From Candidatus Latescibacterota bacterium (lineage in GTDB: Bacteria > Krumholzibacteriota > Krumholzibacteriia > WVZY01): 64,000 nt of DNA. Positions 25,358 to 30,049 of the stretch are shown piece after piece (positions within the stretch are counted from its first letter, which is position 1; every line of letters begins with the position of its first letter). The notes under the pieces were generated by a model that saw only the letters and a list, made by a program, of their open reading frames with translations, was not told the DNA's origin and did no database searches. The translations under genes were made by a program, and so were the position numbers. The DNA lies in assembly GCA_963791045.1 (NCBI GenBank), contig CAWBQK010000018.1:1-64000 (forward strand), given 5' to 3'.

Positions 25358-26833
25358 ATGAACATGACAAAATTAATTTCGATGATCCTGATTTCCGGAG
25401 TTGTGGCGTTGGCTTTCCTTGCTCCGGCAATGGGACAGGGAGATATAAAAGCATCACTCTTTGCCGTGGCGGACAGCGCGTTGTCAAACGCCAAAAAGGC
25501 GCAGGCGGATATCCTGGCGCCGAAGAGCTTTGACCGCGCGATGAAATTGTACACCGATGCCGAAAAGGATCTCGAAAAAGGCAAAAACCTCGACGACATT
25601 CGCAAGAAATTGACGGAGGCGGGATCATACTTCGACAAGTCAACCGAAGCCAGCGAACTCGGCCGCCTCACACTTGAAAAGGCGATTGCGGCGCGAGAGG
25701 ATGCGAAAGAAGCGGGATCCGCAACGTATTCGACTGAGACTTGGGGCAAGGCTGAAGCCAAGTTTCGCGAGGGCGCCGCAAAGCTAGAAGACGGTGACAT
25801 CAACAATGCGAGGAAAAAGGGCGGGGAGGCCGAGCAGATTTACCGGCAGGCGGAACTCGAAGCCATTAAGGCTAGTTATTTGAAGGAAACGTGGGGCCTT
25901 CTCGAGACGGCGAACGACAAATACCGACGTCGAAGCCGCGAAGACCATTCTCGCGCTGACAAGTTGGCCAAGGAGGCCGAGTCGGAGCTGATTGAGAACC
26001 GGTATGACACCGACCGTCCGCGAAGTCTGGCGCGTCAGGCAAATTATGAGGCCAAGCACGCGATATATCTTGGAAAAACAGTTCAAGAAATGGAACGCGG
26101 AAAAAAGAGTTTTGAAGACGCGATGCTGTTGAGCGAGGAACCGTTGAGGGAGATAGCCGCAGTGATCGACATTGCCGCCGAATTCGATGAAGGATACGGG
26201 AAAACAACCGGGCAAGTGATCGAGCACCTCAAATCCCTGCAGGATGCCAACGCAAAGCTGACTCAAGATGTCACGGACCGCGACGAGGAACTGAAGAACA
26301 TGGGCGCGAGGGTTGTTGAACTCGAAGCCCAACTCGGTGGAATAGCCCAGGAAAAAACCGCGCTGACAAAACAGATGGAAGCACAGGCGGAAATGCGTGC
26401 GCGGTTCGCGGCGGTCGAAGGTATGTTCGACAGCGAGACGGCAAATGTATTCCGTGACGGTAACAAAGTCATCATTCGCGTGACGGGAATCAATTTCGCT
26501 TCCGGGCGTGCGGACATCAATCCTCAGAACTTTGAACTGCTGACGTCGGTCGAGAAGGCGATCGATACGTTCCCGGCATGCCACATCACTGTGGAGGGAC
26601 ATACGGACTCATACGGCAGCGATGAAAAAAACCTGGAGCTCTCGGAAGAGCGCGCCGTGGCGGTTAAAGCGTATCTGATGGCAAACATGAATCTCGATTC
26701 AACCCGGATCGACGCGAGAGGGCTCGGCGAGACGTATCCGATCGCCAACAACGAGACCCCCGAGGGTCGGACCAAAAACCGTCGTATTGAGGTCATCATT
26801 CAGCCGCAGACGGGGGCCGAAGCGGGTATGTAG
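25358..26833 (+). CDS. OmpA-family protein with long helical/coiled-coil N-terminal region
   Basis: Signal peptide; C-terminal OmpA domain VEGHTDSYG...NLELSEERA...GRTKNRRIEV. Confidence 0.9.
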   Translation: MNMTKLISMILISGVVALAFLAPAMGQGDIKASLFAVADSALSNAKKAQADILAPKSFDRAMKLYTDAEKDLEKGKNLDDIRKKLTEAGSYFDKSTEASELGRLTLEKAIAAREDAKEAGSATYSTETWGKAEAKFREGAAKLEDGDINNARKKGGEAEQIYRQAELEAIKASYLKETWGLLETANDKYRRRSREDHSRADKLAKEAESELIENRYDTDRPRSLARQANYEAKHAIYLGKTVQEMERGKKSFEDAMLLSEEPLREIAAVIDIAAEFDEGYGKTTGQVIEHLKSLQDANAKLTQDVTDRDEELKNMGARVVELEAQLGGIAQEKTALTKQMEAQAEMRARFAAVEGMFDSETANVFRDGNKVIIRVTGINFASGRADINPQNFELLTSVEKAIDTFPACHITVEGHTDSYGSDEKNLELSEERAVAVKAYLMANMNLDSTRIDARGLGETYPIANNETPEGRTKNRRIEVIIQPQTGAEAGM

Positions 26834-26869
26834 CGAGATGGCGGACATTTCGTAGTGTATCGAATTTGG

Positions 26870-26908
26870 AAGGCGGCGTGGGTTACAAGATTCACGCCGC
26901 CTTTTTTT
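26870..26908 (+). terminator. Rho-independent terminator
   Basis: AAGGCGGCGTG...CACGCCGCCTTTTTTT. Confidence 0.85.
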
Positions 26909-27022
26909 GACGGACCTGCAATTTTTCCTTATTCACTGCGGTGATCCGTTTGCCTTGACATTGGCCTCCGGAATCACAATTTTTAGAAACCATTACTTTT
27001 TGATAACAACAGGAGGAAAACT

Positions 27023-28030
27023 ATGTTTAACGCATACGCCGCCGACAGTGCCGAAGGAAAACTCAAACCCTTCGAGTACGACCCGGGCGCGCTTCGCGCC
27101 GACCAGGTGGAGATTGATGTCGACTATTGCGGGATCTGCCACTCGGATCTCTCGATGCTCAAGAATCACTGGGAAATGACGGGTTACCCGTTTGTGCCCG
27201 GTCACGAGGTTGCAGGGCGAATCGCCGCCGTCGGCGACAACGTCAAGCATCTCAGTGTGGGGCAGAGCGTCGGGCTCGGGTGGTTTTCGGAGAGCTGCAT
27301 GACATGTCCGCAGTGCATGTCGGGCGATCACAACCTCTGCGCGACCATCGAGCAGACGATCATCGGTCGCTTTGGCGGGTTTGCCAATAAGGTTCGCTGC
27401 CATGCCGGGTGGGCCATTCCGCTCCCCGAAGGTGTGGACTCGGCCAACGCGGGGCCGCTCTTTTGCGGCGGCATCACGGTGTTCAATCCGATTACCGAGT
27501 TTGGCGTGAAACCGACGGATCGTGTCGGCGTGATCGGCATCGGTGGGCTGGGGCACCTGGCCGTCCAGTTCCTCAACAAGTGGGGTTGTGAAGTGACGGC
27601 CTTTACGTCGACCGGGCCGAAGGCCGAAGATGCCCGGCGCATGGGCGCGCACCACATCGTCAATTCGAGGAGCGACGACGAGATCGGCAAGATCGAAGGC
27701 TCGTTGGATTTTATTATCTGTACGGCCAACGTGGCGCTCAACTGGGACGCCTACATCGCGGCGCTTGCCCCCAAGGGAAAGCTCCACGTCGTTGGCGCGG
27801 TTCCCGAACCGATCCCCGTGCACGTGTTCCCGCTGCTCGTCGCACAGAAGTCGATTTCGGCTTCGCCACTCGGCAGCCCGCAGACCACGGCGACGATGCT
27901 TGATTTCTGTGCGCGGCACGAGATCGCCCCGGTGACCGAGGAATTTCCAATGTCGAAGGTCAACGAAGCGCTCGATCACCTCGAATCAGGAAAAGCTCGT
28001 TATAGAATCGTTCTTAAGAATGATTTTTAA
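27023..28030 (+). CDS. Zn-dependent NAD(P)H alcohol dehydrogenase/aldehyde reductase (Ahr/YjgB-like, CAD family)
   Basis: CGICHSD, PGHE, structural Zn CxxCxxCx7C, CGGITV, GIGGLGH, ARYRIVL. Confidence 0.93.
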   Translation: MFNAYAADSAEGKLKPFEYDPGALRADQVEIDVDYCGICHSDLSMLKNHWEMTGYPFVPGHEVAGRIAAVGDNVKHLSVGQSVGLGWFSESCMTCPQCMSGDHNLCATIEQTIIGRFGGFANKVRCHAGWAIPLPEGVDSANAGPLFCGGITVFNPITEFGVKPTDRVGVIGIGGLGHLAVQFLNKWGCEVTAFTSTGPKAEDARRMGAHHIVNSRSDDEIGKIEGSLDFIICTANVALNWDAYIAALAPKGKLHVVGAVPEPIPVHVFPLLVAQKSISASPLGSPQTTATMLDFCARHEIAPVTEEFPMSKVNEALDHLESGKARYRIVLKNDF

Positions 28031-28139
28031 CTTATTGCTAATTAAGTAATAAGGCGCTTGGTGGTGGATGCCCTCCGCACACGAGCGATTTTGAGGTTGC
28101 AGACCTTTTGGCCGGACGGTTAATTTTAAGACAAGAAAT

Positions 28140-28400
28140 CCGCACCTGAGTGCGGCGGCTTCGGCGGCCTGGGCGGCCGACGGGGCCGGGTGAGGTGGGT
28201 CTCACCGAATTTGGGCACGCCCGGCAAGGAGGTGATCCAGTGAAATCTGACAGATGCGGCTTAGTGGAGGTGGCGTCCCTGTAGAGAGGGCACTCCCGAG
28301 CGCGTGGCGCTAGTCAGGGATCACCCCGTGCGGGGTAACCCAACGCCACCGATACTGAAGCAAATGAGGCTCCGCGACGTTTTGTCGCGGAGCCTCTTGT
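28140..28400 (+). ncRNA. Putative structured small RNA or small-ORF transcript with extended 16S-complementary sequence
   Basis: Series of GC-rich stems; AAGGAGGTGATCCAG at 28226-28240; multibranch domain closed by GGTGGCGT (28269-28276) and ACGCCACC (28343-28350); 13-bp terminator stem. No long ORF. Confidence 0.6.
28240..28284 (+). CDS. Putative 14-aa peptide MKSDRCGLVEVASL
   Basis: GTG start 7 nt after GGAGG of an exceptionally long SD; TAG at 28282-28284. Confidence 0.45.
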   Translation: MKSDRCGLVEVASL

Positions 28401-28403
28401 TTT
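28366..28403 (+). terminator. Rho-independent terminator (may also serve the convergent minus-strand gene)
   Basis: GAGGCTCCGCGAC-GTTTT-GTCGCGGAGCCTC-TTGTTTT. Confidence 0.85.
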
Positions 28404-28433
28404 GCGAGCATGGTGCAGCGTCTGAAAAGTCTG

Positions 28434-29036
28434 TCAGAACGCCAGACCCATAAAGGTAACGAGAACTGAAATCGCATTCACTTCAACCTCGGTGGCCTGG
28501 ATTGTCTTGCTTGGTTTTCCCCAGTTCACGGTTGCTTCCAACGACCAGTGTTTTGTGAACTCATAACCGATACCGCCGGTTACACCAAATCCGGTGAACG
28601 TCTCGGAGTCGGATTCGAGCGGAGCGGACCAGGTTGAGACACCGATGGCTCCGACCACGTACCAGGCCGGGGCCTCTGTTTTGAAATAATATGAGATGCC
28701 AACCAATCCTACGCTGGATGCGATGGTGACATCTTCTTGAAGAAGGGAGTCACTCGTGACACTGCTCGATTTGAACCAGGCGACTCGATTCACATAGTAA
28801 ATGAGAAGTTGATCGTTGATGCCGGCGCCGATCTTGAAATCGGTTCCGATGGCAAACTTGCTTTCGCGATCACCCGTTTCATAACCTTCCACGTCACCCT
28901 GGAAAGAACTCCATCCCGGTCCGACACCGAAGCCGAGCAAAAAGCCCTTTCGTTCCCCATTGAATGCCTCTGCTGAGGTCGTCATCACTGCGATCGCAAT
29001 CAAGATAAGAAGTGCGGTGACTGCTCGAAAACGCAT
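28434..29036 (-). CDS. Outer-membrane beta-barrel protein
   Basis: Signal peptide, amphipathic strands, GIGYEFTKHW, terminal Phe. Confidence 0.8.
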   Translation of the reverse strand: MRFRAVTALLILIAIAVMTTSAEAFNGERKGFLLGFGVGPGWSSFQGDVEGYETGDRESKFAIGTDFKIGAGINDQLLIYYVNRVAWFKSSSVTSDSLLQEDVTIASSVGLVGISYYFKTEAPAWYVVGAIGVSTWSAPLESDSETFTGFGVTGGIGYEFTKHWSLEATVNWGKPSKTIQATEVEVNAISVLVTFMGLAF

Positions 29037-29153
29037 TTCGTGGCCCCCGTTGTGGAGATGTGGATTATGCTATTGTGCGCTCAGGTGAGATTCTTACGTT
29101 GATAGTTGAGTCCTTGCACAGAATCCGCGTTGTGTCAAGACAGGTTTGGCCGG

Positions 29154-29843
29154 CTAATCGGATTGTGCGAGAGTGTGTTTGACCCAGAACACAACAGCCA
29201 GAAGCGTGTAGAAGAACGAATGAATCACGTAGGCATAAACAAACCCGCCATCGACTTTGAGAATCAGGGGAGGGAATACGAGCCCCGATACAATAGCCGC
29301 GACGACATAGAATCTCGCGAATGATTTCGCCTGATCGCCGAACAGGTTCATCAGGGGGATGTGTGCGATCGAGAACACGACCGTGTAAATAAGGATGACA
29401 TACAAGAGACTTTCCGTCTCCCGATGGATCGTCAATACCAACGCCACAATCATCGTCTGCTGGAAGAGGACTTCAAACGCTTTCGAGAACAAATAGCGGT
29501 AGTCCAGGGTAAGGAAGAATTCCTGGGGATGCCGGGCGATCACCTTCTGTGGTTTTCGCAGATATTGCCGGGACACGAAATAAAGAACGGGCTGGAGGGC
29601 GATCATCATTGCAAGGATGGTGACGGAGGTTCCGGTAAATGTGTCCGCGAGTGGGAGAAGAGTCGTCATGAATATGACGGCGGCGAGAGCCGTCAGACAA
29701 AGAAAATACGCGGACGTTAAAACAAACTTATCCACGTAGTTAATGCGTCTGGAGCTCAGAGGGCCATAAAACAAGCGCCAGGCTGCTACCCACAGGATCA
29801 GCCAGGTGAGGAGTATCGCGACAGGTCGAAGAAATGCGGTCAT
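29154..29843 (-). CDS. Integral membrane hypothetical protein (possibly CPBP/Abi intramembrane protease-like)
   Basis: Multiple TM helices; FEVLFQ, FSIAH and IHS motifs loosely resemble CPBP motifs. Confidence 0.6.
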   Translation of the reverse strand: MTAFLRPVAILLTWLILWVAAWRLFYGPLSSRRINYVDKFVLTSAYFLCLTALAAVIFMTTLLPLADTFTGTSVTILAMMIALQPVLYFVSRQYLRKPQKVIARHPQEFFLTLDYRYLFSKAFEVLFQQTMIVALVLTIHRETESLLYVILIYTVVFSIAHIPLMNLFGDQAKSFARFYVVAAIVSGLVFPPLILKVDGGFVYAYVIHSFFYTLLAVVFWVKHTLAQSD

Positions 29844-30049
29844 TTGTTTCCCGTAATTAACCGTTACCTTGACAATCTCTCTTACTCATGATAACTTAAA
29901 TGTAAGCCCGCAGCCTGAGTTCCGCACAGTATACCATCTTAGCGTACATCCTTCCTGGCCAACAAAAACAACCCGACGGGGCGCTCCAAAGCGTGCCGTG
30001 GCGCCGTTATTTATACGGATTTTCGTCTTTTTCTGTAAAAGGGGGGAGC

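Follow-up and report, generated by a model that had tools for sequence, protein, structure and literature searches.

The locus and its complement of the 16S tail

The DNA considered here, called the window below, is a stretch of 64,000 nucleotides (nt) from a Candidatus Latescibacterota bacterium (positions 1 to 64,000 of contig CAWBQK010000018.1, GenBank assembly GCA_963791045.1), and the element in question is a gene for a short structured RNA on its plus strand. The RNA gene lies in a 403-bp gap (28031-28433) between two convergent genes, which a first-pass annotation, made from the sequence alone, had put at about 400 bp; the upstream neighbor encodes a zinc-type alcohol dehydrogenase (ADH-type gene, 27023-28030, plus strand) and the downstream neighbor an outer-membrane beta-barrel protein (OMP gene, 28434-29036, minus strand). 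The RNA is probably a ribosome-binding small messenger RNA (mRNA) of about 270 nt, like the rre small mRNAs in kind and belonging to a separate structural family.

The gap contains the extended Shine-Dalgarno (SD) sequence AAGGAGGTGATCCAG (28226-28240, plus strand). The organism's own 16S gene terminates in ...GGTGCGGCTGGATCACCTCCTTTCT, read from the reverse strand of L001, and AAGGAGGTGATCCAG is therefore the exact Watson-Crick complement of its own 16S 3' tail, which confirms on this genome a complementarity that had been proposed from the common bacterial 16S end. All 15 positions give Watson-Crick pairs and the next position could give a G-U pair only. The predicted energy of the duplex is -27.2 kcal/mol, compared with -7.0 kcal/mol for the GGAGG/CCUCC core, so that the pairing does go well beyond a normal SD as had been claimed; the further claim that it would reach helix 45 holds in the sense that the predicted duplex would fill the single-stranded tail up to what we take to be the boundary of helix 45, without entering that helix. 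The 15-mer is present twice in the 3.66-Mb assembly, at this locus and on the reverse strand of the 16S gene end, and the chance expectation is about 0.007 matches per genome. Measured against the window's own 16S tail, the exact complement in the 58 family members described below is 15 nt long in 29, 14 nt in 20, 13 nt in three, 16 nt in two, 17 nt in two, 11 nt in one, and 7 nt in one.

The reading frame and the encoded peptide

The complement leads into a short open reading frame (ORF), GTG...TAG, of 14 codons (28240-28284, plus strand; GTG at 28240-28242, TAG at 28282-28284) that would encode MKSDRCGLVEVASL. Complement and start codon overlap by a single base, the G at 28240; the frame and peptide had been read correctly in the first-pass annotation, but the GTG had been placed after the 15-mer, one base off. 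The frame is kept in all 58 members, with 14 codons in 24 and 15 codons in 34, and the start codon is GTG in 57 members and TTG in one, while TGA (25 members), TAG (20), and TAA (13) all serve as stop codons. Inside the frame is a second SD-like heptamer, GGAGGTG (28266-28272, plus strand), which is invariant in 57 of 57 aligned sequences; the stop codon follows it at a distance of 9 nt, as in the window, or 12 nt in 58 of 58 members. Like this heptamer, the SD and the GTG vary little or not at all in the 57-sequence alignment. The conserved structure leaves the stretch between the helices P4 and P5ext, described in the following section, unpaired; this segment carries the complement and the GUG start, and it is 37 nt long in 43 of 59 members and 35-41 nt overall. 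The spacing from the GGAGGTG of the SD to P5ext is 33 nt in 53 of 59, and the first helix after the GUG start lies 21 nt downstream. The 14-residue peptide has a grand average of hydropathy (GRAVY) of 0.34 and a conserved C-terminal half, G-[LS]-[VA]-E-V-A-S, whose codons are exactly the 5' strands of the helices P5ext, P5, and P5a.

Structure of the 5' and 3' domains

A nested structure derived from the window was examined on a plain MAFFT alignment of 57 distinct members, where 86.2% of cells are paired compared with 38-48% when the partners are slid by 1-3 columns, and none of 500 shuffles reaches any of the five observed measures of covariation. The 5' domain on the plus strand consists of four hairpins. 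P1 (CCGCAC/GTGCGG, 28140-28155) and P3 (GGTGAG/CTCACC, 28189-28206), both present in the first-pass annotation, are borne out by compensatory changes: five of six pairs in P1, with 91.5% of cells paired, and three of six in P3, with 99.1% of cells paired and, in its loop GTGGGT (28195-28200), a GGG that is invariant across the alignment. The long hairpin P2 (28156-28188) has an outer part (28156-28162 with 28182-28188) with compensatory changes in four of five pairs and 96.5% of cells paired, and an inner part (28165-28169 with 28175-28179, loop UGGGC) that is poorly aligned by MAFFT and 70.8% paired. The short hairpin P4 (TGGG-CACG-CCCG, 28212-28223), directly before the SD, is weakly supported, with 67-73% of cells paired.

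The 3' domain (28261-28358, plus strand) comprises the extension P5ext (28261-28265 with 28354-28358), the closing helix P5 (GGTGGCGT/ACGCCACC, 28269-28276 with 28343-28350), and the arms P5a (28277-28280 with 28287-28290), P5b (28299-28303 with 28307-28311), and P5c (28323-28327 with 28332-28336). On the MAFFT alignment, all five pairs of P5ext show compensatory changes and P5 is nearly invariant (99.3% paired); however, the middle of the domain aligns badly in this way, and for this reason a covariance model was built from 10 sequences and used to align 59 matches. This model-guided alignment is biased towards the model; on it, 89.3% of cells are paired compared with 39-51% with partners slid, and compensatory changes occur in all five pairs of P5ext, two of eight in P5 (99.4% paired), three of four in P5a, five of five in P5b, and four of five in P5c. 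These changes support a four-way junction, as far as the model-guided alignment goes, and agree with the multibranch domain described earlier from the window, with its closing helix, its three arms, and a first arm whose loop contains the stop codon.

Several alternative pairings have been considered. The helix GCCGGGTG/CGCCCGGC, also part of the first-pass annotation, finds its pairs in 83.5% of cells, but 85 of 500 shuffles reach the same covariation. It would form at the expense of P2, P3, and P4, for which covariation is seen, and where P3 changes from C-G to U-A (nine sequences) it gains merely a G-U pair. In nearly all members, the 5' strand of P3 (GGGYG) can instead pair with the 3' strand of P4 (CGCCC; 28185-28225 in the window), the core pairs being at least 90% G-C or G-U, and this pairing is a possible conformational switch beside the SD, put forward without covariation support. 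The junction strand AACCCAA (28337-28343, plus strand) is a complement of the P3 loop. Apart from the two SD-like sites, few blocks of the RNA are invariant, and the GGG of the loop and the CCC of this strand are two of them. A pseudoknot between loop and junction is offered as a hypothesis only: 94.7% of cells are paired, yet three of the five pairs never vary, the single variable pair has three compensatory cells against 13 unpaired ones, and a compensatory change in L118 is not repeated in its 11 relatives. Finally, a partial copy of the 16S tail, GGATCACC (28318-28325, plus strand), can pair with the SD part GGTGATCC (28231-28238). The fold-back occlusion of the SD proposed from this pairing does appear in the minimum-energy fold of the window, and GGATCACC is the best SD partner there and in the nearer relatives; across the family, a stronger-than-shuffled partner occurs in just 27 of 58 members, and occlusion by GGATCACC as a family-wide feature was rejected in favor of a clade-specific one.

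Predicted ends of the transcript and neighboring genes

We infer a free-standing gene of about 270 nt, extending from about 28133 to about 28404. A promoter-like site (28097-28126, plus strand), with TTGCAG at 28097-28102, an 18-nt spacer, and TAATTT at 28121-28126, has an A/T-rich stretch just upstream and would place the RNA start near 28132-28134. The motif TTGNNN-N16-19-TANNNT, ending 12-16 nt before P1, is present in 24 of the 55 members with 70 nt of upstream sequence, compared with a mean of 0.8 and a maximum of 4 in shuffles, and an A/T-rich stretch often precedes it; a generic promoter scan of the locus reported no promoter, the TTGCAG-18-TAATTT site included. The position of this site before P1 argues that P1-P4 belong to the transcript. 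At the other end, the terminator scan found an intrinsic terminator-like hairpin (28366-28404, plus strand), its stem (28366-28396) followed by TTGTTTT. A terminator had been expected there, with a stem of 13 bp where 14 pairs are counted, and aligned relatives also have terminator stems, which differ in sequence. The plus strand was assigned because the SD, the frame, the T-run, and the promoter-like site all point to it. The six sequencing runs listed for positions 26500-30000 have small shares (0.05-0.11) and are of DNA or of unstated kind, none of them being an RNA run.

The proposal of an independent gene is strengthened by these two sites together with the absence of any conserved neighboring gene, the largest cluster of flanking ORFs having 7 of 103 and flanks being common to close relatives only. 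An attenuator leader, already set aside in the first-pass annotation, was likewise rejected, since the next gene is convergent, there is no same-strand downstream gene to regulate, and downstream ORFs vary in family and strand among relatives. A search of 27000-29500 for tRNA and tmRNA genes found none. The hairpin at 28366-28396 was also called as a terminator on the minus strand, with the weak T-run ATTTGCTTCA, and may serve the OMP gene at 28434-29036 too. This gene and an OmpA-family gene (25358-26833) flank the region, without a visible link to the RNA.

Distribution and a second lineage

With positions 28130-28405 as the query, BLAST gave a single homologue in each of 26 genomes out of 41 related ones, the genome of the window being counted among them, with 73-89% identity over about 200 nt and spread over several families. 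The pattern "SD, GTG, 20-32 nt, GGAGGTGG" occurs in exactly one copy each in 70 of the 208 genomes of the phylum. Carriers were found in the groups f1 (4 of 12), f2 (17 of 23), f3 (43 of 91), f4 (3 of 7), and f7 (2 of 10) and none in f5 (0 of 43), f6 (0 of 12), f8 (0 of 8), or f9 (0 of 1); the reversed control pattern had no match in the 208 genomes, and divergent members, for example L040 and L026, are missed by the GGAGGTGG pattern. A metagenome scan with the gap set to N{24,32} gave four loci, each with a frame of 15 codons (23 being the usual spacing), and records with the same RNA are labelled Candidatus Krumholzibacteriia (L098, L133), "Fibrobacteraceae" (L051), and "Acidobacteria bacterium" (L118).

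The last of these belongs to a second lineage. The 3' domain model has one match in each of 20 of 41 genomes, these being the 6.6-Mb L118 genome and 40 relatives, under the label Acidobacteria; 19 matches score 58-85 bits and the twentieth, on a short contig, 29 bits, and all 20 carriers are outside the 208 genomes of the window's phylum. In 12 loci of this lineage that were inspected, P1-P4, the SD, the P5 domain, the terminator, and a 14-codon frame, MDDxxxGSAEVASS, are present in 12 of 12, so that with the 58 members there are homologues that preserve the long SD, the ORF length, and the stems, the absence of which the first-pass annotation had named as evidence against its proposal. P5ext is TTAGT/ACTGA in the window and TCTGCG/CGCAGA in the second lineage, a change that turns LV of the peptide into SA and has its compensating bases in the non-coding strand, and the two lineages show no relation in codons 2-7 (KSDRCG or SYDRSG compared with DDxxxG). 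Because the peptide alters where the helices co-vary and the compensation lies outside the frame, selection appears to keep the RNA helices and the translation of a frame of fixed length, not the peptide sequence. The L118 locus has a tRNA gene within 100 nt.

Other loci with an extended SD

A scan of one genome per species with the 17-mer AAGGAGGTGATCCAGTG gave at least 120 loci. Among the 120 matches listed, to which all counts in this section refer, the GTG opens a frame of no more than 30 codons in 113, and 91 of these 113 have a terminator-like site within 280 nt; 27 of the 113 carry non-Alphaproteobacterial labels (Acidobacteriota, Planctomycetota, Krumholzibacteriia, Burkholderiales, and others). 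The window family accounts for four loci. The peptides fall into rreR-like (18 codons), rreB-like (14 codons), and MSHC... (21-27 codons) types, with further types of 16 codons in Planctomycetaceae/Pirellulales records and single loci in Lujinxingiaceae and Methylomirabilis. The rreB-type loci have the peptide MSFxKRCHLAGIAR and the identical 17-mer; three of them (L113, L123, L148) adjoin a tRNA gene, as is described for rreB in the passages of Hahn et al. drawn on here (PMC5711450).

Three other groups were noted. Loci from Phycisphaerales and Phycisphaerae (L059, L077, L081, L085, L087, L094, L145, L149) combine the same 17-mer with a frame of 9-12 codons, for example MIDRCTQGLRA, a conserved 5' domain of their own (GGGCGATGTGCC...GACGG...), and a terminator, and do not match the 3' domain model. 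Acidobacteriota and Acidiferrales loci (L044, L058, L076, L126, L129, L139, L147, L151) have the 17-mer, a 6-codon frame (MRYGLR), one hairpin, a terminator soon after, and a TATAAT-like box about 45 nt upstream. The betaproteobacterial loci, in records labelled Burkholderiales and Bordetella (L080, L092), have a promoter directly before the SD, a frame of 24-26 codons starting MRD, and a terminator; theirs is the best sub-threshold score outside Alphaproteobacteria (32.1 bits) for RF01867, the Rfam family CC2171. An SD-like site (-7 kcal/mol or stronger) 6-12 nt before the stop occurs in 27 of 27 rreR-like loci, four of four of the window family, 21 of 48 of the MSHC type, two of two from Burkholderiales, and L155, L157, and L071, and is absent from the rreB-like (0 of 9), 6-codon (0 of 8), and Phycisphaerae (0 of 9) types, counts that are uncontrolled for ancestry or composition.

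Interpretation and alternative explanations

The RNA of the window had been left without a family, yet a described class exists, namely the rre small mRNAs and RF01867. In Bradyrhizobiaceae, rreB is an mRNA 165 nt in length; 17 nt of it are complementary to the 16S end, and the final nucleotide of this stretch doubles as the G of the GTG that opens a frame of 14 codons (Hahn et al., RNA Biol 2016/17, PMC5711450). According to the passages of that paper drawn on here, full-length rreB is found in the ribosome pellet and co-sediments with 30S subunits, is weakly translated, and has a lifetime of about 10 min, compared with about 37 min once the start codon is replaced; rre genes are defined there by a complement of 16-17 nt, analogues are reported only in Caulobacterales, Rhizobiales, Rhodobacterales (rreR, 18 codons), and Rhodospirillales, and the function is termed elusive. 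A literature search on rreB and rreR found no functional follow-up, the citing papers found being from the same laboratory and on other topics, and the passages found of a Caulobacter ribosome-profiling paper (PMC4117421) do not mention CC2171. Judged from its sequence, the kind of RNA seen in the window is thus already known and the family is new, having a new architecture, occurring in new phyla, and being absent from Rfam 15.

By analogy with the rreB experiments (PMC5711450, as far as its passages are drawn on here), the earlier suggestion of a 30S-binding RNA is supported, while the sequestering role suggested with it is unlikely. The long SD would capture the single-stranded 3' tail of free 30S subunits, and the very strong SD duplex together with the GUG start would keep translation slow and delay departure from the start. 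An initiating 30S subunit covers about 15 nt of mRNA downstream of the start; since the first helix lies 21 nt past the start, an initiation complex could occupy the 37-nt segment without melting any helix. A ribosome reading the frame, by contrast, would have to open P5ext, P5, and P5a and would thus remodel the RNA, which could couple the lifetime of the RNA to ribosome engagement and leave the peptide as a by-product. The second SD-like site lies one SD-to-start spacing before the last codons, so a terminating ribosome could re-pair there.

Several observations weigh against this reading in whole or in part. The transcript, its ends, and its strand are all predicted from DNA, and folding energy gives no choice of strand, since, relative to its shuffles, the minus strand (z -7.30) is no less stable than the plus strand (z -4.93). 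In the ensemble fold, most of the SD is predicted to pair: it is unpaired with a mean probability of 0.36, and 54 of 58 members fall below 0.5. The predicted partners vary between members, and the 3' domain folded alone forms the four-way junction in 18 of 58 members and in 37 a rod in which the P5a and P5c strands pair with one another. The 15-nt complement of the window falls below the 16-17 nt of the rre definition, a length found in four of 58 members, although the G shared with the GTG start and the short ORF (14-15 codons in 58 of 58) are as in rre genes. The scores likewise give no evidence of homology to rreB, rreR, or CC2171: RF01867 scores 22.7 bits on the window (E = 0.009) against a gathering cut-off of 75 and is above the cut-off in none of 151 genomes of the window's class, while a Caulobacter control passes, and the 3' domain model scores 75-166 bits on the four loci of its own family and at most 26 bits on the rest of the 120 matches listed. 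Over-expression of rreB in Bradyrhizobium left growth unchanged (in the passages used of PMC5711450), which makes plain sequestration of ribosomes unlikely as the function.

The explanations that compete with a ribosome-binding small mRNA differ mainly in which part of the RNA they regard as functional. If the 14-residue peptide were functional and the RNA structure merely tuned its synthesis, then the conservation of frame, length, and in-frame stop (58 of 58, and 12 of 12 in the second lineage) would be expected, as would length differences of +3 nt inside the frame, a second SD-like site placed 26 or 29 nt past the start, and the conserved C-terminal half; however, the conserved codons are the 5' strands of P5ext, P5, and P5a, helix covariation changes the peptide from LV to SA with compensation outside the frame, and codons 2-7 are unrelated between lineages. 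Synthetic RreB and RreR peptides are moreover described as unstructured and their over-production as without phenotype (passages of PMC5711450), and a micropeptide gene is accordingly considered distinctly unlikely. A sensor RNA, in which P1-P4 with their three UGGG motifs bind a protein or ligand and gate access of the 30S subunit through the P3-loop:junction or GGGYG:CGCCC pairing, is just as improbable. Such a role would suit the complementary GGG of the P3 loop and CCC of the junction, which besides the SD-like blocks are the main invariant ones, the alternative helix GCCGGGTG/CGCCCGGC, which can form in most cells, and the Alphaproteobacterial and Burkholderiales versions without a 5' domain, which imply that this domain is an add-on; but neither the pseudoknot nor the alternative helix co-varies beyond conservation, no riboswitch or protein-binding family of Rfam matches, and the neighbors are unconserved, so the context names no ligand or partner. 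A bolder proposal, rather unlikely though somewhat less so than these two, is that the RNAs may not be real mRNAs at all but exist to bind the 16S 3' tail as dedicated ligands, under at least five labels of phylum level. In the window family, the 5' and 3' domains, tied by the P3-loop:junction pseudoknot, would frame a 37-nt pad for an idle 30S subunit, which the second SD-like site would re-catch at termination; such an RNA might act as a parking or checkpoint factor, for example in storage or in proof-reading the mature 3' end, with translation as its release and decay switch.

A trans-acting base-pairing small RNA (sRNA), in which GGATCACC and the CTCC that follows P5a would base-pair with other mRNAs while the ORF played no part, is very improbable. 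Its size, own terminator, and lack of a conserved neighbor are sRNA-like, and CC2171, originally catalogued as an sRNA, is seen on Northern blots of Methylorubrum (bioRxiv 10.1101/2022.01.24.477521, in the passages drawn on); against this, the anti-SD-like stretches are unconserved across the family while the SD, start, and second SD-like site are invariant, and in an incidental ORF, start, length, and stop would not all be kept across 58 of 58 members. Least credible, and hardly worth entertaining, are a type I toxin-like mRNA, an rRNA operon remnant, or a chance match. Type I toxins are hydrophobic membrane peptides, in most cases some 20-60 residues long, that come with an antisense RNA; the short ORF, the structured mRNA, and the fold-back partner of the SD in the window had suggested such a gene, but a 14-residue peptide with this GRAVY is too short and too polar for a membrane toxin and its sequence varies between lineages, and the candidate was rejected, the antisense side being covered by the promoter and terminator scan only. 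The 15-mer is identical to the reverse strand of the 16S end, as a remnant would be; nevertheless, it is all that is common to the 16S locus, the next best match being 10 nt, and the remnant was rejected. A chance match is contradicted by the expected number per genome and by conservation with covariation in two lineages.

Comparison with known systems

The preferred reading, a ribosome-binding small mRNA, invites comparison with the rre RNAs and CC2171 above all, and more distantly with 6S RNA. The latter is abundant and binds a core machine by mimicking its normal nucleic-acid ligand, and its use as a template releases and destabilises it; however, it binds RNA polymerase and not the ribosome, has no sequence or structural relation to the present RNA, and was not matched in the Rfam scans of the window. 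Of these scans, the gathering-threshold scan of the whole window gave no matches, and the E-value scan gave only the sub-threshold CC2171 match plus chance ones, with no riboswitch or protein-binding family. The relatives of the window have no RF01867 match at E <= 0.01, and of nine sub-threshold matches in the class, three were inspected, one (L040) being a true family member and two (L032, L037) lacking the SD core. On 14 named Alphaproteobacterial loci, RF01867 passes seven, all of the MSHC... type (21-25 codons), with near misses at 65.5 and 69 bits, and gives rreB- and rreR-type loci 28-42 bits. The CC2171 RNA of Caulobacter is like the present one in that its 5' consensus contains GAAAGGAGGUGAUCCAGUG and its model ends in a terminator, and the window matches both ends, but the middle of the model is skipped in that match.

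The likeness to rreB is one of plan: both are free-standing small transcripts (the present one by prediction) with a terminator, a complement that ends in the G of GTG, a 14-codon frame, and a genomic context that is unconserved outside close relatives. At 165 nt, rreB differs in having its SD about 10 nt from the 5' end, no 5' domain, a 17-nt complement, an unrelated peptide, and a home in another phylum, and its 3' part scores at most 26 bits with the 3' domain model of the window family; 30S binding, weak translation, and start-codon-dependent decay have been demonstrated for rreB only. The rreR RNA of the Rhodobacter/Roseobacter group is similar in that its extended SD ends in the GTG that opens a short frame and in that it has a terminator, and its relatives have a second SD-like site, as in the window family, 6-8 nt before the stop in 16 of 27 loci among the matches listed, with shared ancestry uncontrolled; it differs in its 18 codons, its peptide (MSRxVLERGVGT...), the lack of a 5' domain, and the lack of resemblance to the 3' domain of the window. 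The Alphaproteobacterial and Burkholderiales versions in general have a promoter directly before the SD and no 5' domain. What is common to all is the SD with its GTG, which the 16S tail dictates, and the overall plan; common descent with rreB or CC2171 cannot be shown.

While the literature searched treats rre and CC2171 RNAs as Alphaproteobacterial, their distribution is now wider, and it includes one family with a much larger, covariation-supported architecture, common to two lineages, in which the RNA structure is under selection and the peptide sequence is unconserved. The recurrence of a maximal SD, a GUG start, a tiny frame, and a terminator in otherwise unrelated RNA bodies argues for a general ribosome-directed function, and several independent natural versions are thereby available for experimental comparison with rreB.

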